Notes: generated from the sequence alone by a model not told the origin. Shown: positions 1,968-64,000, counted from the stretch's first letter. The stretch is 64,000 nt of DNA from an uncultured Caldisericota bacterium (GCA_964640995.1 CAZXJJ010000003.1:198829-262828), one strand, 5' to 3'. A program made the numbers and translations.

Positions 1968-2780
1968 TTAAAAATTTTTTGCATTATAAGCAAGAGATAA
2001 ACTTGCCATCAAAAAATTATAAACCTCTTTATAAGAATTGCTTTCAAATGAGACTTTTCTTCCATCAACTCTTTTTGAACAGGGTATCAAAGATGCAAAT
2101 TCAGCCATCAAAGTATTTATAAAAGTTATCTCTATTTTTATAGGTTTTTCAAATTTAAGAGGTTTAACACTCTTATAATTTTTAAGTGCTTCTTTTGTCT
2201 CTTCTCTTAAAATTTTATGAACATAATCTGGGTGATATAATTTAGCAGAGAATCTTCCAAGTGATTCTTTTGTGATTATAAATTTTGTTTGAGGAAAAAA
2301 TTTTTGAGAGAAATCTTTTAATTTTTCATCTCCAGAAATCAATACAACTGGTACATCATATTCACCGAGAAAACCACCATTAATTTCTGCTTCGCCAACA
2401 ACTTCATCATTTATTTTAACTTCAAAAATTGTTGAACTTGAATATGTGTGATCCATCTCACTATTTAAAGAACCTACAGGAGAGTGATATCCTACAAAAA
2501 TTCCAGCATCAAAACTTTCATCTATTCCTGAAATCATATAAAACTCTCTTGGATATCCTGAAATTATTTTTATATCATCATAAATTCTTTTTATATCTAA
2601 ATTTCTTCCATAAGAGTGTGAGTCACACAAAACTATCTCTGCATTTTTATCAAAATCTTTTATTCCATCAATAACTGCTAAAACCTCCTCTGTCATAAAT
2701 TTTTCAATCTTTTCATCTTTTTCTTTCCAGTAAGTTAGACCTGAAATTCCTTCCATATCAATGGAAATAAAAATTTTCAC
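1968..2780 (-). CDS. dppA: D-aminopeptidase DppA-like (peptidase M55)
   Basis: 270 aa starting MKIFISIDMEGISG, characteristic of the M55 D-aminopeptidase family. Confidence 0.7.
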   Translation of the reverse strand: MKIFISIDMEGISGLTYWKEKDEKIEKFMTEEVLAVIDGIKDFDKNAEIVLCDSHSYGRNLDIKRIYDDIKIISGYPREFYMISGIDESFDAGIFVGYHSPVGSLNSEMDHTYSSSTIFEVKINDEVVGEAEINGGFLGEYDVPVVLISGDEKLKDFSQKFFPQTKFIITKESLGRFSAKLYHPDYVHKILREETKEALKNYKSVKPLKFEKPIKIEITFINTLMAEFASLIPCSKRVDGRKVSFESNSYKEVYNFLMASLSLAYNAKNF

Positions 2781-2908
2781 TTTTCACCTCCATCAAAAAT
2801 TTCTTAATTATTATATCATTTTAAATTTACTAAATAATTGGTCCTTAAAATGGACAACTTTATTTAAAAATTGTAACTTTAAATAGTCAATATAATAAAA
2901 AATTTGTA

Positions 2909-2937
2909 TTGATTTTACCTCTTATTTATGATATAAA
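2909..2937 (+). promoter_or_regulatory. sigma-70-type promoter for the rpsB operon (-35 TTGATT, 17-nt spacer, -10 TATAAA), followed by a hairpin-containing leader
   Basis: TTGATT at 2909-2914, TATAAA at 2932-2937; leader hairpin CCTCTTG...CAAGAGG at about 2982-3005; strong RBS AAAGGAGG before ATG 3058. Confidence 0.45.
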
Positions 2938-3057
2938 GATTTAGATTTTAAAAAACACACGCTTCTGATTCTCTTCAAGGTGCCTCTTGTATTATCAAGA
3001 GGTGTGAAGAGAAGATGACGAAGCGGAGGAAAAAACCTAAAAGGAGGATAAAAAGAT

Positions 3058-5738: not shown

Positions 5739-6434
5739 TTGAAAGAAGAATCTTTAATAATTCCTGAATCTGTTGCCATTATAATGGATGGCAACGGAAG
5801 ATGGGCACAACAAAGGGGGCTTCCAAGAATATATGGTCATAAAGAAGGAATTAATGCTGTTAAAAGGGCAGTCACCTATTCCTATAAAAAGGGAATAAAA
5901 GTTTTATCTCTTTTTGCATTCTCAACTGAAAATTGGAAAAGACCAAAAGATGAGATTAATTTTTTGATGAATCTTTTCAAAGAGGTTATTCAAAAGGAAT
6001 TTGATGAAATTGTTGAAAAAGGGATAAAGGTTAAATTTTTGTCAAGAAAAGATGAACTTCCAGATTTTGTAATAAAAGAGATTGAAAGGATTGAAGAAAA
6101 CTCTGAAAATTATAACAAGATGACACTTCTTGTTGGCTTAAATTATGGTGGGAGATTTGATATAGTTCAAGCAGTTAATAAAATAATTGAGAGTGGAATA
6201 AAAAAAGTGAATGAAGAAGAATTTTCAAAATTTTTATTAACTTATCCATATAAAGACCCTGACCTTTTGATAAGAACATCAGGAGAGTTAAGAATTTCAA
6301 ACTACTATTTATATCAATTATCATACACAGAACTATATTTCACAGAAACTTTTTGGCCTGATTTTGATGAGAATGAGTTTGAAAAAGCAATAATTGAATA
6401 TTCAAGGAGAAAGAGGAGATTTGGGTCAATCTGA
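5739..6434 (+). CDS. uppS: undecaprenyl-diphosphate synthase
   Basis: 231 aa; IIMDGNGRWA and FAFSTENW motifs. Confidence 0.9.
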   Translation: MKEESLIIPESVAIIMDGNGRWAQQRGLPRIYGHKEGINAVKRAVTYSYKKGIKVLSLFAFSTENWKRPKDEINFLMNLFKEVIQKEFDEIVEKGIKVKFLSRKDELPDFVIKEIERIEENSENYNKMTLLVGLNYGGRFDIVQAVNKIIESGIKKVNEEEFSKFLLTYPYKDPDLLIRTSGELRISNYYLYQLSYTELYFTETFWPDFDENEFEKAIIEYSRRKRRFGSI

Positions 6435-7176
6435 ATTAAAAAATAGAATAATTGGAGCAATTTACTTTGGATTATCTTTTATTTTTTTTATATACCTTGG
6501 GGGAATTTACCTTAAAATATTTTTAATTTTTTTAAGTTTTACCCTTTTTTATGAAGTAAGTTTGTTCTCAAATTTAAAAAATAATTTTTTTTATTTTCCA
6601 TTTCTTTTGCTTCCATATTTTTCAAATTTAGAAATATCTATCTTTATTTTTCTTCTTTTCTCATTTATTATTTTTGTTGTTTCAAAAAGTGAAATTGAGG
6701 ATTTTTTAAAAGAAGTTTTATTTCCATTTTCATTTCTAATTCTTTCAACATTCCCATTTTTTTATCTTTTTTTATTAAGAGAAAATAGAGGAATTTTTAA
6801 AACATTCATAATAATAATTTCAATATGGATTTCAGATATTTTTGCATATTTTATAGGAAAGAAATTTGGAAAAAGAAAAATTATTCCTAAAGTTTCTCCT
6901 GGAAAAAGTTTCGAAGGTCTTTTTGGAAGTATTTTATCTCTTTATATATTCTTTATTTGCTTAAATATTTTTTATAAAAATTTTACAACAAAAGAGATGG
7001 TTTTCCTTCCATTGATTATTGTGTTTTTATCTTTTATTGGAGATATTTTTGAATCAACAATAAAAAGGTATTTTAAAGTCAAAGATTCTGGAAAAATAAT
7101 TTTAGGTCATGGGGGACTTTTTGATAGAGTCGATAGTTTTATATTTACAATTCCTATTTTATATTTTATATTATGA
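6394..7176 (+). CDS. cdsA: phosphatidate cytidylyltransferase (CDP-diglyceride synthase); start may be downstream of the annotated ATG
   Basis: Polytopic membrane protein with C-terminal GHGGLFDRVDS motif; the track start overlaps uppS by 41 nt. Confidence 0.8.
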   Translation: MNIQGERGDLGQSELKNRIIGAIYFGLSFIFFIYLGGIYLKIFLIFLSFTLFYEVSLFSNLKNNFFYFPFLLLPYFSNLEISIFIFLLFSFIIFVVSKSEIEDFLKEVLFPFSFLILSTFPFFYLFLLRENRGIFKTFIIIISIWISDIFAYFIGKKFGKRKIIPKVSPGKSFEGLFGSILSLYIFFICLNIFYKNFTTKEMVFLPLIIVFLSFIGDIFESTIKRYFKVKDSGKIILGHGGLFDRVDSFIFTIPILYFIL

Positions 7177-54542: not shown

Positions 54543-54617
54543 TGGTAGCGCCACGGGGAATCGAACCCCGATCTGAGGATTGAGAGCCCTCCGAACTGAC
54601 CATTGTTCTATGGCGCC
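54543..54617 (-). tRNA. tRNA-Glu (anticodon CUC)
   Basis: Minus-strand cloverleaf: acceptor GGCGCCA/UGGCGCU, anticodon stem GAGGG/UCCUC with loop CUCUCAA, T-arm CGGGGUUCGAUUCCCCG, CCA encoded. Confidence 0.8.
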
Positions 54618-56357: not shown

Positions 56358-57635
56358 CTAACCTGATTTAACTATTGGGATCTCTTCCCACCTTGTTGTA
56401 TAATTTTTTGATCTGTTGAGTTGTCTCATCTGAAATGGTTTTGATATTCCACAAGAAAGTGGTTTTATTGTTTCTCTTCCAAATTTTTTATTTATATTGT
56501 CAATCGCTTTCATTAAAATTTCATCTTTACTTCCTTTGTAAATTGAATCAAAAAAGAAAAATTGACCCTCTTCTTCAGGTATTAAACCTTGTAAAATAAC
56601 ACCTGCTTTTTTATATAAAATTCCACTCTTGTAGATTTTTTTAAGTTCCTGAATTCCGGCTTCAATCATCTCACTTGTATTTGCTGTTGGTCTTGGAAAA
56701 TAGTATGATGATATCTTAAAATATTTTTCTCCCTTTTTAAATGGATTACTCATTAAAAAAACTGAGATGATTGATGAAAGTTGTCTTCCTTTTCTTAATT
56801 TTTCTGATGCAATTGTTATAAAAGATGAGATTGCCTCTTTAAGGTCTTTAAAATCTGTGAGATCTTTTCCAAAAGACCTTGATGTTGAAATTGATTTTTT
56901 AGTTTTCTCTTCAAACTCCATATCAATACATGGAATTCCGTTGAGTTCTAAAAGAACTCTTAAACCAAATGTTTTAAGATGTTTTTTTACCCAATCATAT
57001 GGAAGGTATTTGTAATCATAAGCTGTTTTTATATCATTTTTCTTTAAAAACTCTTCAAATCTTGCACCAATCCCCCAAACATCTCTTATTTCAAATTTTT
57101 TAAGAAACTCATCTATGTCTTTTCTATCGAGAAGATTAAATGTACCAGAACCTCCTTTGTCTTTTTTTGCTAACTTTGTTGCAATTTTTGCAAGAGTTTT
57201 TGTTTCACCTACTCCAATTGAAATTGGTATTCCAGTCCACTTTAAAACTCTATCTCTTATTCTTTTAATATACTCATCAATATTATGGTATTTAAATCTA
57301 TCAAAAGAGATGAATGCTTCATCAATTGAATATATCTCAACATCAGGACACAAGGTTTTTATTGTTTCCATAACTCTTCTTGACATATCTCCGTATAGAG
57401 TGAAATTTGAAGATAGAAGTTCTATATTATATTTTTTAACTAAATCTTCATATTGAAAAATTGGTGCACCCATTGGAATACCCAATTCTTTAACCTCATT
57501 TGACCTTGAAATAACACAACCATCATTGTTTGACAAAACAACAACAGGTTTCCCCTTTAATTTTGGATTAAAAAATCTTTCGCATGATACATAAAAATTA
57601 TCACAATCAACTAGAGCAAAAACTTTCCTCTTCAT
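56358..57635 (-). CDS. Y-family DNA polymerase (UmuC/DinB-like)
   Basis: 425 aa; N-terminal ALVDCDNFYVSCE palm motif. Confidence 0.8.
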   Translation of the reverse strand: MKRKVFALVDCDNFYVSCERFFNPKLKGKPVVVLSNNDGCVISRSNEVKELGIPMGAPIFQYEDLVKKYNIELLSSNFTLYGDMSRRVMETIKTLCPDVEIYSIDEAFISFDRFKYHNIDEYIKRIRDRVLKWTGIPISIGVGETKTLAKIATKLAKKDKGGSGTFNLLDRKDIDEFLKKFEIRDVWGIGARFEEFLKKNDIKTAYDYKYLPYDWVKKHLKTFGLRVLLELNGIPCIDMEFEEKTKKSISTSRSFGKDLTDFKDLKEAISSFITIASEKLRKGRQLSSIISVFLMSNPFKKGEKYFKISSYYFPRPTANTSEMIEAGIQELKKIYKSGILYKKAGVILQGLIPEEEGQFFFFDSIYKGSKDEILMKAIDNINKKFGRETIKPLSCGISKPFQMRQLNRSKNYTTRWEEIPIVKSG

Positions 57636-58043
57636 TTATAAAATTTTATGAATAACATAGGTCACAACACCCCAAATCTCGCACTCCATTCCTTCTTTTA
57701 TCTCAATAGGATCAAAGTCTGAATTTTCAGGAAATAGATATAGTTTTCCATTTTTCTTTCTTATTCTTTTAAGCACAAATTCTCCATCAACATTTGCAAT
57801 AACAATTTTTCCTTCTTTTGGCTCAAGCGCTCTATCAACAATTAATATATCTCCATCTCTTATGTTTGCATTTATCATTGAATTTCCTGAAACTCTAACA
57901 AAAAAGGTTGCTTGAGGATGTTTTATAACAAGGTCATTAAGATCTAGTGTTTTTTCAATAAAATCATCAGCAGGTGATGGAAAACCAGCAGACACTTTGT
58001 TTGAATAAAGTGGAAGTTTTAATTTTTTCTTTTTTCTTCTCAT
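57636..58043 (-). CDS. UmuD/LexA-like S24 peptidase domain protein
   Basis: 135 aa; GNSM catalytic Ser and downstream Lys (VLKRIRKK) of S24 self-cleaving family; immediately upstream of the Y-family polymerase gene. Confidence 0.7.
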   Translation of the reverse strand: MRRKKKKLKLPLYSNKVSAGFPSPADDFIEKTLDLNDLVIKHPQATFFVRVSGNSMINANIRDGDILIVDRALEPKEGKIVIANVDGEFVLKRIRKKNGKLYLFPENSDFDPIEIKEGMECEIWGVVTYVIHKIL

Positions 58044-58119: not shown

Positions 58120-58300
58120 GTAAAATTATTTTGGTCAGGTGTAGGGAAGAGGGTGAAAATCCCTCGCTGCCCCGCAACTGTGAGTGGGTATTGATCTAAT
58201 CCTTAAGCCACTGGGAAACTGGGAAGGCTTAAAGAAAAGTTACAGCACCCACAAGCCAGGAGACCTGCCTGATCAAATTTTACCTTCCGCCTTCGCGGGA
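58120..58300 (+). ncRNA. cobalamin (adenosylcobalamin) riboswitch
   Basis: Core GGGAAGAGGGTGAAAATCCCTCGCTGCCCCGCAACTGTGAG and B12 box AGCCAGGAGACCTGCC (58254-58269); 3' hairpin CCTTCCGCC-TTCG-CGGGAAGG abutting the AAGGAGG RBS of the downstream gene. Confidence 0.8.
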
Positions 58301-58314
58301 AGGAAAGGAGGAGT

Positions 58315-59649
58315 ATGATGAAAAAATTTTTAAAAATCTCACTTTTATCAATTCTTTTATTTGTTTTATTATTTCCTACATTTTTCCATCCCCAAAAAAA
58401 TATTTTCTCATTTAGTGTAAATTTTTCTTTTAAGATCAATTCAAATCTTTTTCAATTAAATGAAAATACCTTCCAATTCACACAAAACCCAATTGTTAAA
58501 AATGGAAAAACCTTTGTTCCTGTTAGAGATTTCCTTAATGCTCTTGAAATAGAATATAAATGGGTTGATTCAGAAAAAAGCATAAACTTTGAGTATGATG
58601 CAAAGAAAGTTAAAATCTATTTAAAAGAGAATTTTTACACAATCAATGACTCAAAAAGAAATTTTAAATTTAGGCCATTTATTTTTAAAGATTTAACTTA
58701 TGTTTCTGTAAGAGATTTAGGAGAAATTTTCAATTTAAATGTTATTTGGAATGAAAAAGAGAAAAAAGTTACTCTTTCAGGAAATATATATCCCAAAATT
58801 ACAGTTAAAGATGATTTAAACAATGTTGTTACTTTTTATGAAAAACCAAAAAGGATTGTCTCTCTTGCACCATCAAATACAGAAATTTTGTTTTCTTTGG
58901 GATTAAATGATGAAATAGTTGGTGTTACTGAGTTCTGTGATTATCCAACTGAAGCCAAAAAGAAAGAGAAAATTGGTGGTTTTATAAATCCAAATCTAGA
59001 AAAAATTTACTCCCTTAAACCAGATTTAGTTTTAGGAATTAGGGGCAATCCAATTGATCTATTCATGAATCTTAAAAAATTAAAAATAAAATCACTTGCT
59101 TTTGACCCAAAAAATGTTGATGAACTATTTAAATTAATTTTAACAATAGGAAAGGTTGTTGATAAAAGAGATGAAGCAAGAAATCTTGTTGAAGTTCTTT
59201 CTGAAAAAAGAATGAAAATCATCGAAGAAGCGAGAAAGTTCAAAAAGAAAAGAGTTTATGTAGAGATTTGGAATAGTCCTTATATGTCTGTTGGTAAAAA
59301 TACTTATATTAATGATTTAATTGAGGGGGTCGGAGGAATAAATATCGCAAGCAAAGCAACTGGAGATTGGCCAATTCTTTCACAAGAGTTCATAATAAAT
59401 GAAAATCCAGAAGTTATTATAATTGCTTATATGGGGCAAACAATAGATGATGTTCTAAAAAGATCTGGATGGGAAAAAATTGATGCTGTTAAAAATAGAA
59501 GGATTTATATATTTGAAAATCAAGACCTCATCTTTAGATTAGGACCTAGAATAATTGATGGTATGGAGGAACTTTTTAGGTTGATTCATAAAGATGAACT
59601 ATCAAAATTTTCTGAGGAGACGAATGTCTCCTCCCCTCTAATCAGATGA
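58315..59649 (+). CDS. BtuF/FhuD-type (cluster A) cobalamin/siderophore ABC substrate-binding protein with N-terminal copper-amine-oxidase-N-like domain
   Basis: 444 aa; signal peptide without lipobox; residues about 60-160 resemble the C-terminal domains of the 2227-aa protein (NGKTFVPVRDFLNALE..); C-terminal about 280 aa periplasmic binding fold. Confidence 0.7.
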   Translation: MMKKFLKISLLSILLFVLLFPTFFHPQKNIFSFSVNFSFKINSNLFQLNENTFQFTQNPIVKNGKTFVPVRDFLNALEIEYKWVDSEKSINFEYDAKKVKIYLKENFYTINDSKRNFKFRPFIFKDLTYVSVRDLGEIFNLNVIWNEKEKKVTLSGNIYPKITVKDDLNNVVTFYEKPKRIVSLAPSNTEILFSLGLNDEIVGVTEFCDYPTEAKKKEKIGGFINPNLEKIYSLKPDLVLGIRGNPIDLFMNLKKLKIKSLAFDPKNVDELFKLILTIGKVVDKRDEARNLVEVLSEKRMKIIEEARKFKKKRVYVEIWNSPYMSVGKNTYINDLIEGVGGINIASKATGDWPILSQEFIINENPEVIIIAYMGQTIDDVLKRSGWEKIDAVKNRRIYIFENQDLIFRLGPRIIDGMEELFRLIHKDELSKFSEETNVSSPLIR

Positions 59650-60623
59650 AGAAAAATTTTTTTATATTAACAATAGTAATTTTACTTTTTATCTCTCTTT
59701 TTTTATCTTTATCATTTGGTGCTAAAAGATATTCATTTTATGAGGTTATAAAATTTATCTTCAATCTTAAAAATGCAGATGAATTATTTATAAAAATAAG
59801 AATTCCAAGGGTTTTCTCCTCGTTTCTTGTTGGTGCATCTCTTTCAATTGCAGGACTTCTATCTCAAACTCTATTTTTAAATCCACTTGCAGATCCATTT
59901 TTGTTTGGTATTTCTTCTGGTGCAAATTTTTTTGTAACCTTATCACTTTTTTTAGGTTTTGATATGATATTTAAATATTCACTTTCATTTTTCTCTTTTC
60001 TTGGTGCACTTTTTTCTGTTTCGATGATTTACCTTATAAGTAGAATCAAAGGGAAAATCACTCCACTGAATTTACTTCTTTCTGGAATTGCTATAAATTA
60101 TCTTTTCTCTTCTCTTTCAACCTTTCTTGTTATATGGGGAAGGGATGTTTTAAATAAATCTGTCTTTTGGTCTTTAACAGGTTTCTCAACTGCTGATATG
60201 AATAAATTTCTTTTTTTATTTTTTATATTTATTCCAGCTTTAATAATCTCTATTTTCATAAGTTTTAAACTTGATGTTTACTCTTTGGGGGAAGACCAAG
60301 CAAAAACTCTTGGAATAAATACAAACTCATTAAAAACTATAACACTTGTCTTAATTTCAATTCTAACAGGGGTTAGTGTTTATGTTTCTGGAATTATAGG
60401 TTTTATAGGTCTTATGGTGCCAAATATTTTAAGAGAGATTTTTGGTTTAAAACACTTAAAACAAATTTTACTTTCAGTGCTTTTTGGTGGATTTTTATTG
60501 GTTCTTTCAGATTTATCTGGAAGAGCAGTGTTTTATCCAACAGAAATTCCTGTTTCAACAATAACTTCTTTTTTAGGTGTTCCATTCTTTTTGTATGTTT
60601 TATGGAAAGAGAAGGTATTTTAA
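59646..60623 (+). CDS. btuC: FecCD/BtuC-family ABC permease
   Basis: 325 aa, about 9-10 TM helices, FecCD-type. Confidence 0.8.
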   Translation: MKKNFFILTIVILLFISLFLSLSFGAKRYSFYEVIKFIFNLKNADELFIKIRIPRVFSSFLVGASLSIAGLLSQTLFLNPLADPFLFGISSGANFFVTLSLFLGFDMIFKYSLSFFSFLGALFSVSMIYLISRIKGKITPLNLLLSGIAINYLFSSLSTFLVIWGRDVLNKSVFWSLTGFSTADMNKFLFLFFIFIPALIISIFISFKLDVYSLGEDQAKTLGINTNSLKTITLVLISILTGVSVYVSGIIGFIGLMVPNILREIFGLKHLKQILLSVLFGGFLLVLSDLSGRAVFYPTEIPVSTITSFLGVPFFLYVLWKEKVF

Positions 60624-61357
60624 TGAATAGAAATTATCTTGAAATAAAAGATGTTTCTTTTTTCTATAAAGATAGAGAGATTTTAAAAAATATAAGTTTT
60701 TGTATCGAAAAAGGTGATAGTTTAACAATTTTTGGTCCAAATGGTAGTGGAAAAACAACACTTTTAAAAATTTTAATTGGACTTTTAAAGCCACAAAAAG
60801 GAGGGGTTTATTTTAAGGGTATTGATATATTTAAAATAAATGAAAGGGATAGAGGAAAAATTTTTTCTTATGTTCCACAAAAGGTAAATATTAATTTTCC
60901 ACTAAAAACTTTTGATTTTCTTTTAACAGGTAGAGCACCTTATATAAATGGATTTGTAAAAAAAGAAGATAAAGATATTGTTTTAAATTGGATGGAAAAG
61001 TTTAACATAATTCATCTAAGAGAGATTAATTTTCAACTTTTATCTGAGGGAGAAAAACAACTTTTAACATTAATTAGAACATTAATTCAGGAAACAGAAA
61101 TAATTGTTCTCGATGAACCATTAAATCACCTTGATTTAAAATATAAAATAAAAATTTTAAAATTATTACAAAAGATAAAACTCTCAGGCAAAACGGTTAT
61201 ATCTGTTTTTCATGAAATAGATTCAATAAAATTTTTATCTGATAAAGTTGTCTTTCTTAAAAATGGAGAAATAGAAAAATTTGGTGAAGTTGAAAAATTA
61301 ATAAAAAAAGAAGAGATTATCAATCTTTTTGAAGAAAACATACCATTTCTAATTTAA
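60602..61357 (+). CDS. btuD: ABC transporter ATP-binding protein (BtuD/FepC type)
   Basis: 251 aa; Walker A GPNGSGKTT, LSEGEKQ signature. Confidence 0.8.
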   Translation: MEREGILMNRNYLEIKDVSFFYKDREILKNISFCIEKGDSLTIFGPNGSGKTTLLKILIGLLKPQKGGVYFKGIDIFKINERDRGKIFSYVPQKVNINFPLKTFDFLLTGRAPYINGFVKKEDKDIVLNWMEKFNIIHLREINFQLLSEGEKQLLTLIRTLIQETEIIVLDEPLNHLDLKYKIKILKLLQKIKLSGKTVISVFHEIDSIKFLSDKVVFLKNGEIEKFGEVEKLIKKEEIINLFEENIPFLI

Positions 61358-61418
61358 TGTTATAATTTTGTATCAACATCAAAGAAAGATGTTATAATTA
61401 ATAAAATCCCAGAAGGAG

Positions 61419-62513
61419 GTGGTATTAATGATTAAAATATCTGTTATTGGTGCAGGAAATGGAGGTCAAGCTTTATGTGCATATCTTTCTATGAAAGGTT
61501 TTGACACCTCTTTGTATAATAGAAGCAGATGGAGAATAGAACCGATAATTGAGAGCAAAAAAATAAAAGTTGAGGGTGAAGTAAAAGGAATTTCAGAAAT
61601 TTCATTTGCAACAACAGATCTTGAAGAGGCTATAAAAGGGAGAAAACTCATTATGGTTGTTGTTCCAGCATTTGCTCACAGAGAAATCGCCGAAAGAATT
61701 GCCCCATTTGTTGAAGACGGTCAAATAATTTTATTAAATCCAGGAAGAACAGGTGGTGCTCTTGAATTTAAAAATGTTTTTAGATTAAAAGGAGTTAAAA
61801 AAGAAACTCTTGTTGCTGAGGCACAAACTTTTATTTTTGCATCAAGAATGTCAAATCCAGGAGTAGTTAAAATTTTTAGAATAAAAAATGCCGTGCCAAT
61901 CTCTGCAATTCCTGCGAAAAGAAATGATGAACTTAAAGAGATTATGAGAGAGGTTATGCCAGAGTTTGAGGTTGTACCAAACACAATTTACACAAGTTTC
62001 AATAATATAGGTGCTGTTTTTCATCCAGCAACTTTAATTCTTAATGCTGCAAGAATCGAATCAACAGCAGGAAAATTTGAATTTTATCTCGAAGGAATCA
62101 CAATTTCAGTTGCAAAAGTACTTGAAAAGGTTGATGAAGAAAGGTGTCTTGTTATGAAAAAATTTGGAGTCGAGCCCCTTACTTCTCTTAATTGGTTAAA
62201 ATACGCTTATGATGTAACTGGAAAAAATCTTTATGAGGCAATTCATAACAATAGTGGTTATCAAGGAATTCTTGCCCCTCCAAGTATTGATAATAGATAC
62301 ATAACTGAAGATGTTCCAATGAGTTTAGTTCCAATCTCCTCATTTGGTAAAGAGTTTGGAATTAAAACAGATACGATTGATTCAATAATAACACTTTCAA
62401 ATATAATGATGAATGAAAACTATTTTCAAACTGGAAGAACAGTTGAATCTTTAGGTCTTAAGGGAAAAACTCCAGAAGAGATTGTGAAATATCTGGAGGA
62501 GGGTGATGAATAA
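61419..62513 (+). CDS. opine dehydrogenase-family NAD(P)-dependent oxidoreductase
   Basis: 364 aa; Rossmann VIGAGNGG N-terminus and helical C-terminal domain resembling octopine/nopaline DH-type enzymes. Confidence 0.6.
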   Translation: MVLMIKISVIGAGNGGQALCAYLSMKGFDTSLYNRSRWRIEPIIESKKIKVEGEVKGISEISFATTDLEEAIKGRKLIMVVVPAFAHREIAERIAPFVEDGQIILLNPGRTGGALEFKNVFRLKGVKKETLVAEAQTFIFASRMSNPGVVKIFRIKNAVPISAIPAKRNDELKEIMREVMPEFEVVPNTIYTSFNNIGAVFHPATLILNAARIESTAGKFEFYLEGITISVAKVLEKVDEERCLVMKKFGVEPLTSLNWLKYAYDVTGKNLYEAIHNNSGYQGILAPPSIDNRYITEDVPMSLVPISSFGKEFGIKTDTIDSIITLSNIMMNENYFQTGRTVESLGLKGKTPEEIVKYLEEGDE

Positions 62514-64000
62514 AAAAATAGTTGGTGCAGCAATTGAAAACGATATACATGTTGCAGGACTTCTCAATTTTTTGAATCTTGCAAAAAAAGAGGGTTTTGA
62601 AATTCACTATCTTGGTGGCGCAGTTCCAATTGAAAAACTTATAGGTGCAATAATTGAAGTTGACCCAGAAATTGTTGCAATAAGTTATAGATTGGGAGAA
62701 GAGCCATTAAAAAATCTTTTAAATGAATTTGTTGAAAAATCAAAAAAATTTAAAAATAAAAAAATAAAATTTGTTTTTGGTGGAACAATTGAAACAGGAA
62801 AAGTTGCAAGAGCTTATACCATTTTTGAAAGGGTTTTTGATGGAAGTGAAGAAATTGAGGAGGTTTTAAATTTTTTAAGGGGAAGAGCAATAAATATAAA
62901 AGAGAAAGATTATCCTCAAACTTTATGGGAAAGAGTGGAATTTAAAAAACCTTATCCACTCATAAGACATCACATTGGTCTTCAAACTATGGATGAAACA
63001 ATAGAAGAAATTAAAAAACTATCTGAAAGCAAACTCCTCGATATAATTTCTATTGCACCAGATCAAAATTGTCAATGTTATTTTTTTGAAAAAGAGAAGA
63101 TGGATGAAAAATTATCTGGTGCTGGTGGAGCGCCAATAAGAACAGAGGAAGATTTTAAAAAACTATATGAAGCATCAAGAAGAGGAAATTATCCTTTAAT
63201 GAGATGTTATTCTGGAACAAAAAACATTGTAAAATTTTCAAAACTTCTTAAAGAAACAATTAATAATGCATGGGCTGCAATTCCAATTTTTTGGTATTCA
63301 GAACTTGATAAGCGAAGTGACAGAGAACTTCTTTCTGCAATTGAAGAAAATATGGAAGGAATAAGTTGGAATGCTCAAAACAGTGTTCCTGTTGAAGTGA
63401 ATGACTCTCATCAATGGGAATTAAGAAATGCACATGATACTCTTGCAGTAGCAGATTCATATCTTGTTGCTTACATTGCAAAAAAACTTGGAGTTAAAAA
63501 CTATATTCAACAATATATGTTAAATTCTCCACCTAATCTTTCACCAAAAATGGATATAGCAAAAAGTTTAGCAAGAAAAGAGCTGGTTGAATCTCTTCGA
63601 GATGAAAATTTTAATGTTTATACAATGATTCGAACAGGCCTTCTTTCTTATCCATCAGACCCATTTCAAGCAATGGGTCAACTTGTATCTTCTATGTTTT
63701 ATGGCTCATATTTAAAACCAGATATTATTCATGTCGTTGCTTACACTGAAGCGATAAAGAGAGCAACATCAAAAGAAATTATTGAAAGCACAAAGATGGT
63801 AAAAAGAGCATATATTCTTGCTGATTCTGGTCTTCCAGACTTTTATCAAGATAGAGAAATTAAAAATAGAGTTTTGGAGTTAAAAGATGAAGCAATGTAT
63901 CTTATTGAGAAAATAAAAGAATTAGGTAAAGGAAAAAAAGAACCACTTTTAGACCCAGAAACACTTTTCAGTGCAGTTAAAACTGGAATTTTAGATGCAC
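62506..64000 (+). CDS. single-chain B12-binding (GlmS/MutS-like) + GlmE-like (methylaspartate-mutase E family) protein; C-terminus beyond window
   Basis: ATG 62506 overlaps the upstream stop by 8 nt; DxHxxG cobalamin motif (ENDIHVAGL) near the N-terminus, Rossmann-like about 130 aa, then a large domain whose visible end (IEKIKELGKGK..ETLFSAVKTGILDA) resembles, from memory, the C-terminal region of glutamate mutase E subunit. Confidence 0.55.
   Translation, partial: MNKKIVGAAIENDIHVAGLLNFLNLAKKEGFEIHYLGGAVPIEKLIGAIIEVDPEIVAISYRLGEEPLKNLLNEFVEKSKKFKNKKIKFVFGGTIETGKVARAYTIFERVFDGSEEIEEVLNFLRGRAINIKEKDYPQTLWERVEFKKPYPLIRHHIGLQTMDETIEEIKKLSESKLLDIISIAPDQNCQCYFFEKEKMDEKLSGAGGAPIRTEEDFKKLYEASRRGNYPLMRCYSGTKNIVKFSKLLKETINNAWAAIPIFWYSELDKRSDRELLSAIEENMEGISWNAQNSVPVEVNDSHQWELRNAHDTLAVADSYLVAYIAKKLGVKNYIQQYMLNSPPNLSPKMDIAKSLARKELVESLRDENFNVYTMIRTGLLSYPSDPFQAMGQLVSSMFYGSYLKPDIIHVVAYTEAIKRATSKEIIESTKMVKRAYILADSGLPDFYQDREIKNRVLELKDEAMYLIEKIKELGKGKKEPLLDPETLFSAVKTGILDA

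Follow-up and report, generated by a model that had tools for sequence, protein, structure and literature searches.

BtuFCD-like importer genes preceded by a cobalamin riboswitch adjoin a conserved opine dehydrogenase/B12-binding barrel protein pair in an uncultured Caldisericota bacterium

A 64,000-nucleotide stretch of DNA from an uncultured Caldisericota bacterium (referred to here as the window; positions 198829-262828 of contig C3, genome G000) was analyzed for the genes that follow a cobalamin riboswitch near its 3′ end. The genome comprises 1.4 Mb in 22 contigs and carries a completeness rating of 100%. Six co-directional genes were found downstream of the riboswitch, encoding in order: (i) a BtuF-like substrate-binding protein, (ii) a FecCD-family permease, (iii) an ABC ATPase, (iv) an opine dehydrogenase (Octopine_DH), (v) a protein with a B12-binding domain, and (vi) an ATP-grasp enzyme. 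A preliminary description of this DNA had listed five of these genes, all of which are present; the sixth lies past the window end and was found when the contig was followed to its end as locus L006, in which a position equals the window position minus 57171. The six-gene run is ended by a strong bidirectional terminator at L006:7926-7946.

The riboswitch aptamer was mapped by cmscan to 58120..58286 on the plus strand, with a match to RF00174 of 103.5 bits compared with a gathering score of 31.5 (E-value 8e-25; model positions 1-189 of 189). This was the single RF00174 match in the genome. The B12 box, AGCCAGGAGACCTGCC, was read directly from the sequence at 58254..58269 (+), exactly where it had been placed before, and corresponds to the conserved GCCAGGAGACCUGCC in the Rfam consensus. 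At 58284..58317 (+) there is a candidate expression platform, in which the Shine-Dalgarno region of btuF (GGAAGG/GGAGG) can base-pair with CCUUCC. When 58262-58330 was folded, the minimum-energy structure buried both the Shine-Dalgarno sequence and the start codon at -16.4 kcal/mol, with a z-score of only -0.99; no U-run follows the CCUUCC pairing region, and no terminator-like site was found there by the promoter/terminator scan. The case for a platform that sequesters the btuF ribosome-binding site is suggestive only, and abundant cobalamin would most likely act through the riboswitch to shut down btuF translation.

The three overlapping genes next to the aptamer were confirmed as a BtuFCD-like importer. 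They encode the BtuF-like binding protein (58315..59649, +; Peripla_BP_2, 133.8 bits), the BtuC-like permease (59646..60623, +; FecCD, 296.5 bits; 4-nucleotide overlap with btuF), and the BtuD-like ABC ATPase (60602..61357, +; ABC_tran, 103.1 bits; 22-nucleotide overlap with btuC). In the order of riboswitch, binding protein, FecCD permease, and ABC ATPase, with the genes overlapping, the arrangement is like that of known BtuFCD systems. It differs in two respects: the binding protein carries an extra Cu_amine_oxidN1 domain at its N-terminus (residues 48-153, 83.5 bits), and the BtuF and BtuC scores fall under the NCBIfam equivalog cut-offs. The best NCBIfam match of the binding protein was BtuF at 121.9 bits (cut-off 234) and that of the permease was BtuC at 196.8 bits (cut-off 334), while the models closest to the ATPase were those of heme, Fe-dicitrate, and corrinoid ABC ATPases. 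Because these scores are under the equivalog cut-offs, the corrinoid specificity of the importer rests mainly on the riboswitch. The architecture of Cu_amine_oxidN1 plus binding protein was also found in the relatives L106-L108; the added domain, unusual for a B12-binding protein, may anchor the protein at the cell surface or act as a stalk there. The 77%-identical relative L108 departs from this layout (L108:4160-5128 and 5822-6865): between btuF and btuD, small opposite-strand open reading frames were called and no FecCD permease gene, and between btuD and the dehydrogenase lies a gene on the opposite strand. The importer may be decaying in this relative.

The fourth gene encodes a 361-amino-acid opine dehydrogenase of the N-(1-D-carboxyethyl)-L-norvaline dehydrogenase (CENDH) type at 61428..62513 (+). 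Its likely start is ATG 61428, preceded by AAGGAGG, rather than the GTG at 61419 given in the preliminary description, whose family assignment was borne out (Octopine_DH, 156.1 bits, cut-off 30). The protein also matched NAD_Gly3P_dh_N at 44 bits, consistent with an N-terminal NAD(P) Rossmann domain. When compared with the solved CENDH structure 1BG6, it aligned over 346 residues (8-353) with an E-value of 7e-75, and the HP...NAAR and RYxxED motifs, which we take from the 1BG6 and octopine dehydrogenase literature to be the catalytic His and the Arg/Asp motif, are identical in the two proteins. H199, R290, and Y291 were invariant among 29 partner dehydrogenases. Alike in alignment length, E-value, and catalytic motifs, the window dehydrogenase nonetheless differs from CENDH in its tie to a B12 enzyme, by translational coupling here and by fusion in some genomes: its stop codon at 62513 overlaps the ATG at 62506 of the next gene by 8 nucleotides, as had been noted. 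To our knowledge, CENDH has no known physiological role and no described B12 partner. Prediction of a complex between the dehydrogenase and its neighbor gave a score of 0.00, which is no verdict either way.

The fifth gene begins at 62503/62506 and is annotated in the window as 62506..64000 (+), where the window end cuts the protein at residue 499. Its true end corresponds to window position 64131 (L006:5332-6960), giving a protein of 541-542 amino acids with a B12-binding domain at residues 1 to about 130 and a TIM barrel at residues about 134-539. The N-terminal domain with its DIHVAG motif (D14-I-H16-V-A-G19) was upheld by a B12-binding (PF02310) match of 41.9 bits compared with a cut-off of 32.1. 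The base-off/His-on signature, tested as DxHxxG, a Ser about 45 residues past the His, and GG about 75 residues past the His, is kept in that D14, H16, G19, S61, and G93-G94 are conserved. An AlphaFold2 model built with 35 homologues had a predicted local distance difference test (pLDDT) score of 94.1 and a predicted template-modeling (pTM) score of 0.84. When this model was aligned by VIA-align, barrel residues 134-539 matched GlmE, the catalytic subunit of glutamate mutase (1cb7_B; Z 33.0, root-mean-square deviation 3.1, 378 residues), followed by lysine 5,6-aminomutase KamD (8t0v_A; Z 31.7) and ornithine 4,5-aminomutase OraE (3kow_A; Z 28.6), so that GlmE leads the aminomutases by about one Z unit. 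The CoA mutases scored at Z of about 18-22, and residues 1-130 matched corrinoid-binding Rossmann domains at Z 14-16. Foldseek likewise matched the barrel to GlmE (E 1.3e-16). PDB sequence searches with the protein and with the 35-member family profile returned B12-domain matches only and no GlmE chain. The predicted structure places the protein, as a single chain, in the B12 radical-isomerase superfamily, nearest the GlmE/aminomutase branch. R144, R155, R271, R308, and R377 are invariant or near-invariant arginines of the family that are new relative to GlmE.

The preliminary description had interpreted this protein as a fused GlmS and GlmE, that is, a true S-E glutamate mutase, in which case the opine dehydrogenase would consume 3-methylaspartate or glutamate. 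The GlmE likeness of the C-terminal part held for the barrel fold, with GlmE being the top structural match; it did not hold at the level of family profiles, as the Met_asp_mut_E (PF06368) match was 24.7 bits compared with a cut-off of 26.6 and confined to residues 324-500, and the TIGR01503 score was 17 bits compared with a cut-off of 390. Nine of the 35 family members matched PF06368 at an E-value of up to 0.01. Genuine GlmE proteins, scoring about 600-780 bits to PF06368, were assembled from genomes of Sporomusa, Hathewaya, and further Bacillota, and 16 of them were aligned and compared with the family as profiles. By hhalign, the two profiles were related at a probability of 90% (E 1.4e-6) in local mode and 95% (E 1.4e-8) in global mode, and the Arg positions mapped identically in both modes and in an earlier two-sequence comparison. 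The residues Arg66, Arg100, and Arg149, which we take from the 1CCW/1CB7 papers to be the substrate-carboxylate binders of GlmE, and Tyr177 and Tyr181, whose roles we take from the same papers, were invariant in 16/16 GlmE sequences. In the family alignment these arginines were replaced by His157 (34/35), Gln191 (33/35), and Tyr236 (35/35), respectively, and the segment with Tyr177 and Tyr181 was deleted. Acidic residues were retained at two further positions, with GlmE Glu330 corresponding to Glu416 (33/35 sequences) and Glu171 to an invariant Asp269.

Compared with GlmS/GlmE (1CB7/1CCW), the window protein is alike in its DxHxxG B12 Rossmann domain, its same-fold TIM barrel, its acidic residues at the Glu171 and Glu330 positions, and the association of its family with the MutL/GlmL chaperone family, which extends to fusions. 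It is different in being one chain with the B12 domain N-terminal, at an identity of about 17%, in the rebuilt Arg66, Arg100, and Arg149 positions and the missing Tyr177/181 loop, and in having an opine dehydrogenase rather than a methylaspartase as its partner. The genomes of Sporomusa and Hathewaya (G001 and G004) were also found to encode a genuine GlmE alongside a family member, while no true GlmE was found in the genome of the window. Nor was methylaspartate ammonia-lyase (MAAL_C) detected anywhere in this genome, in agreement with the earlier remark that none was visible. We conclude that the fused protein is GlmE-like in outline, yet outside the glutamate mutase family and probably with a different substrate; its being a true glutamate mutase is very unlikely.

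The preliminary description had raised the possibility that glmL or methylaspartase follows on the contig. The ATP-grasp gene and then the terminator follow, and a mutL/glmL homologue stands alone about 160 kb away on the same contig (C3:96875-98230; L105:8876-10231). This gene scored 524 bits to PF13941 and adjoins uvrB and a TetR regulator, with no mutase gene beside it. It was considered as a partner of the fused mutase and is not assignable as such, since OraE and KamE-like enzymes are also encoded in the genome.

The near tie in fold between GlmE, KamD, and OraE raises another possibility, that the pair is an aminomutase and dehydrogenase for amino acid fermentation, in which an amine is moved and the product then oxidized. 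In aminomutase pathways the mutase is followed by an NAD(P) dehydrogenase, as in the use of 3,5-diaminohexanoate dehydrogenase after lysine 5,6-aminomutase and of 2,4-diaminopentanoate dehydrogenase after ornithine 4,5-aminomutase; the fused protein could presumably even be the gene-orphan B12-dependent leucine 2,3-aminomutase. OraE was among the best sequence matches of the B12 domain, many of the hosts ferment peptides and amino acids, and in Tissierellia the pair follows genes for 2-oxoacid:ferredoxin oxidoreductase subunits and a butyrate-kinase-like gene. The likeness to KamDE/OraSE ends at the Lys located 11 residues past the cobalt-binding His of OraE, which we take to be the pyridoxal phosphate-binding residue of B12 aminomutases: the aligned residue is Ala27, the family consensus is Ala, and the domain order also differs. 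No Lys-AminoMut_A or OAM_dimer Pfam match was found in the fused protein at an E-value of up to 0.01, whereas the OraE and KamE-like proteins of the same genome do match. Furthermore, the partner is an opine-type dehydrogenase with CENDH motifs rather than an amino acid dehydrogenase of the known pathways, and ligases and glycan loci recur beside the pair. Overall, we consider an aminomutase function unlikely.

The preliminary description had also treated the S-E fusion as exceptional, a view that did not survive a survey of the family. A word-indexed protein search gave 2,629 matches at an E-value of up to 0.001 among 8,000 candidates scored, and an exhaustive search with the barrel only resolved 422 clusters at 50% identity, nearly all full-length clusters being 540-630 amino acids with the barrel starting at residue 140-230. 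At least 577 species-representative genomes carry the family (the first 600 pattern matches yielded 577 confirmed members). Members were found in Thermotogota, Dictyoglomota, Bacillota, Ignavibacteriota, Chloroflexota, Actinomycetota, Armatimonadota, Omnitrophota, Methanomicrobia, and Asgard archaea, and cultured carriers of the module include Petrotoga mobilis, Kosmotoga pacifica, Thermosipho africanus, Sporomusa aerivorans, and Hathewaya massiliensis. The fused form is the normal form of a large unnamed family and not a rarity. Database names of its members were 'cobalamin B12-binding domain-containing protein', 'methionine synthase', and 'methylmalonyl-CoA mutase cobalamin-binding subunit'; the nearest named relatives of the window protein carry the label Caldisericia, and the ESM Atlas clusters of the family are likewise without names. 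Literature searches combining opine dehydrogenase with B12, glutamate mutase, or ATP-grasp, or using 'glutamate mutase-like', found no paper on the family. A study of B12 in Thermotogales counts B12-binding proteins and does not discuss the fused protein (PMC3509894). As far as names and papers show, the family appears uncharacterized; the result that the preliminary description had named as refuting its reading, namely that this fused architecture is a characterized family of known function, was thus not obtained.

Gene neighborhoods were examined next to family members in 80 fetched loci plus four others, 73 of which had enough flanking DNA to be informative; the search for related loci in species-representative genomes used 13 closer sequences. 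An Octopine_DH homologue was adjacent on the same strand or fused in 68/73 loci (two fusions counted), and in one further locus the dehydrogenase was 1.2 kb upstream of the mutase. The dehydrogenase gene was usually upstream and overlapping, and in three Chloroflexota loci it was downstream. This pairing spans Thermotogota, Bacillota, Ignavibacteriota, Chloroflexota, Actinomycetota, Asgard archaea, and others, and it holds for a 30%-identical, 632-amino-acid homologue as well as for archaeal loci. One fusion (L078:495-3773) is a single chain of 1,092 amino acids with PTS_EIIA_2, opine dehydrogenase, B12 domain, and barrel; the second is in L061. MutL/GlmL was found fused to the mutase C-terminus in three distant members (P0150, P0155, and P0146; 826-1266 amino acids), and a mutL gene lies beside the mutase in L084 and nearby in L093. 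In L075:10001-12256, from a Halothermothrix metagenome-assembled genome, the mutase frame runs on into a cNMP-binding/Crp-type regulator (751 amino acids), either as a fusion or an assembly error.

Ligases formed a second, less constant association. The D-Ala-D-Ala-ligase-like ATP-grasp beyond the window (L006:6973-7923, co-directional, 316 amino acids; PF07478, 109.6 bits) scored under the curated Ddl NCBIfam cut-offs (169.3 vs 243 and 155.1 vs 245.65 bits), and a better Ddl candidate is encoded at C2:53606-54229 (199 bits to PF07478). By these scores, the ATP-grasp enzyme beside the cassette is apparently not the main Ddl of the cell. A Ddl-like ATP-grasp gene was directly downstream in 9/71 loci, plus the genome of the window, Kosmotoga (L008), and the relatives L106-L109, covering Caldisericia, Thermotogota, Dictyoglomota, and a few others. 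A further member, P0135 (L116:1174-3765, 863 amino acids), is a fusion of mutase and GSH-S/RimK-type ATP-grasp followed by a Peptidase_C26 gene; an ATPgrasp_Ter-like ligase was found in the Sporomusa and Hathewaya loci; and AsnB-like amidotransferases were found in nine loci of three phyla. In Sporomusa aerivorans (L031:4626-17385) and Hathewaya massiliensis (L032:6289-14662), the cassette and a DUF7033 gene are located inside surface-polysaccharide loci with genes for a Wzx flippase, a Wzy-like protein, WbpB/D/E-like sugar-modifying enzymes, and an AsnB-like amidotransferase. Two candidates were set aside: His-tRNA-synthetase-like neighbors in seven loci, as a ligase partner, because such a gene also occurs 4 kb upstream in another phylum and may reflect hisS synteny; and a PylC-like identity of the ligase, because its PDB matches (E-value up to 1e-3) were only Ddl/Van ligases and one L-amino-acid ligase.

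These neighborhoods also bear on a catabolic interpretation, in which the dehydrogenase would cleave an imported opine-like or secondary-amine compound and the mutase would rearrange a fragment into central metabolism. The close match to the Arthrobacter CENDH (E 7e-75) fits such a role, that enzyme reportedly having come from an enrichment with an opine. A MutL-fused homologue has genes for peptide ABC transporter ATPases and a C45 peptidase-like protein as neighbors, and phosphotransferase system (PTS) components are near two distant homologues. However, no dedicated opine transporter is conserved beside the pair, the importer here is of the B12 type and riboswitch-controlled, and the recurrent ATP-dependent ligases are hard to place in a catabolic route, which makes this interpretation rather improbable.

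Whether the riboswitch governs the enzyme genes, as the preliminary description had proposed, was found to be doubtful. The aptamer was immediately before btuF in every case (the window and relatives L106, L107, and L108) and travels with btuF only; it was not found upstream of the enzyme module in Petrotoga, Kosmotoga, L109, L023, L024, or L037. In L108, an opposite-strand LPG_synthase_TM gene lies between btuD and the dehydrogenase, which means that transcription of the module in that relative must be independent. In the window, the 70-nucleotide gap before the dehydrogenase holds a conserved TGnTATAAT element. A candidate extended -10 promoter, TGTTATAAT, is located at 61390..61398 (+), 30 nucleotides before ATG 61428, with a second copy at 61358-61366; within this gap (61357-61399) are two copies of ATGTTATAATT, 32 nucleotides apart, each extended -10-like. 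The TGTTATAAT at 61390..61398 aligns with TGGTATAAT in relative L106, and TATAAT is also present in L108. These elements were read by eye as consensus matches only, and the promoter scan detected 32 promoter-like sites compared with 34.5 in shuffled sequence, i.e., no excess. The enzyme module probably has its own promoter, judging from these elements, the position of the aptamer, and the gene order in L108; it would also make little physiological sense to shut off an enzyme that needs B12 just when B12 is plentiful. Linkage of the riboswitch and importer to the module was found only in close relatives, with about 80 other loci lacking it, and is lineage-specific.

The corrinoid economy of the genome provides a context for the importer. 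CbiC was not found in this genome, and the organism appears unable to make the corrin ring. A CobA/BtuR-type adenosyltransferase is encoded, as are seven B12-binding-domain matches; the other B12 proteins include OraE, a KamE-like protein, an MCM-small-like protein, and two B12-radical-S-adenosylmethionine (SAM) enzymes. With no CbiC, an adenosyltransferase, and at least six B12-dependent proteins, the organism must take up corrinoid, and the many B12-domain proteins indicate that the importer serves many enzymes and not the opine dehydrogenase/mutase cassette alone. The position of the B12-domain protein as immediate neighbor of the riboswitch-controlled importer, in the window and in close relatives, could also suggest a non-enzymatic corrinoid handler (storage, remodeling, or sensing) placed beside btuFCD for that reason. 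This is hardly probable at all given that the btu linkage is confined to one lineage, that the protein has a full radical-mutase fold with many invariant polar residues, and that the family has MutL chaperone fusions and a dehydrogenase as its conserved partner.

Overall, we favor, with a probability of roughly 0.6, the interpretation that the locus consists of two adjacent units: a riboswitch-controlled B12 importer, and an isomerase/opine dehydrogenase/ligase cassette that is conserved beyond the lineage. What was observed, and speaks in its favor, is the domain content, the barrel fold, the conserved gene pairing, and the changed active site; we infer the adenosyl chemistry, the order of steps, the substrate, and the physiological role of the cassette. 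In such a cassette, the barrel enzyme would be an adenosylcobalamin radical isomerase, as indirectly suggested by the fold, E416 at the GlmE Glu330 position, the MutL fusions and neighbors, and the adenosyltransferase in the genome; it would catalyze a 1,2-rearrangement of an amino-acid-like substrate other than free glutamate. With NAD(P)(H), the dehydrogenase would form or cleave a secondary-amine (imine) linkage in the substrate or the product, and the acid or amine so formed would be coupled to an acceptor by the ligase. A biosynthetic role is the more likely one for the cassette, which would supply an unusual amino-acid/opine-type building block, possibly for a cell-envelope polymer. It would probably be transcribed from its own promoter, with read-through from the importer possible and not the main control.

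A more specific proposal can be put forward tentatively, at somewhat less than even odds: that the barrel proteins are a new adenosylcobalamin isomerase family with a reaction outside the current short list, obligately coupled to a CENDH-type dehydrogenase throughout bacteria and archaea, Asgard lineages included, and working with a ligase to build an amino-acid/opine-type unit, perhaps one that decorates envelope glycans. The logic would be like that of PylB/PylC/PylD, the pyrrolysine trio of a radical carbon-skeleton mutase, a D-Ala-D-Ala-ligase-type ligase, and an NAD-dependent amine/imine dehydrogenase, since here too a radical mutase, a D-Ala-D-Ala-ligase-type ATP-grasp, and an amine/imine dehydrogenase are brought together. 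The analogy is one of logic only, as PylB is a radical-SAM enzyme and not B12-dependent, PylD is not of the opine dehydrogenase family, and no sequence relationship was found.

Several observations weigh against parts of this interpretation. (i) The active-site mapping derives from a profile alignment at about 17% identity, and the Glu171 position moved by 2 residues between two alignments. (ii) The basis for adenosyl- rather than methyl-type chemistry is the fold and the MutL associations only. (iii) Most loci lack the ligase, which leaves the two-gene pair as the core. (iv) The envelope link comes from two Bacillota loci, and nothing near the window supports it directly. (v) The Tissierellia neighbors, namely 2-oxoacid:ferredoxin oxidoreductase, butyrate-kinase-like, and fatty-acid synthesis genes, would instead fit a catabolic or primer-supplying role. 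(vi) The promoter/terminator scan detected no terminator in the interval from btuD to the dehydrogenase, so some read-through from the importer is possible.

Other features surround the six-gene run. A umuD-like (Peptidase_S24) and umuC-like (IMS/DUF4113) pair at window 56358-58043 (-) diverges from the riboswitch; in L106 an IS200/IS605 Y1 transposase gene adjoins umuC (2211-3038), and in L107 the two were called as a single open reading frame (685-2829). Converging on the operon from the far side is a gene for an S8 subtilase of 1,012 amino acids with a PA domain and a C-terminal type I dockerin (L006:7977-11015, -). A cohesin domain was also found in relatives, which hints at a cellulosome-like surface assembly in this lineage. 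Three tRNA genes were identified by Rfam, two adjacent (+) near the window start (539-690) and one (-) at 54546-54617.

For the organism, the cassette is one more reason for a small-genome bacterium without corrin synthesis to keep a riboswitch-controlled B12 importer. For the family, the names 'methionine synthase' and 'methylmalonyl-CoA mutase cobalamin-binding subunit' are misleading, and the annotations need fixing. We know of only about a dozen adenosylcobalamin-dependent isomerase reactions that have been described, each of which taught new radical chemistry. If the proposal of a new isomerase family is true, it would give bacterial CENDH-type opine dehydrogenases the physiological role that they have so far lacked. 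The pair is present in hundreds of species of anaerobic bacteria and archaea, and the combination of a glutamate-mutase fold, a rebuilt pocket, and the tie to an opine dehydrogenase points to an undescribed B12 step in amino-acid-derived metabolism.

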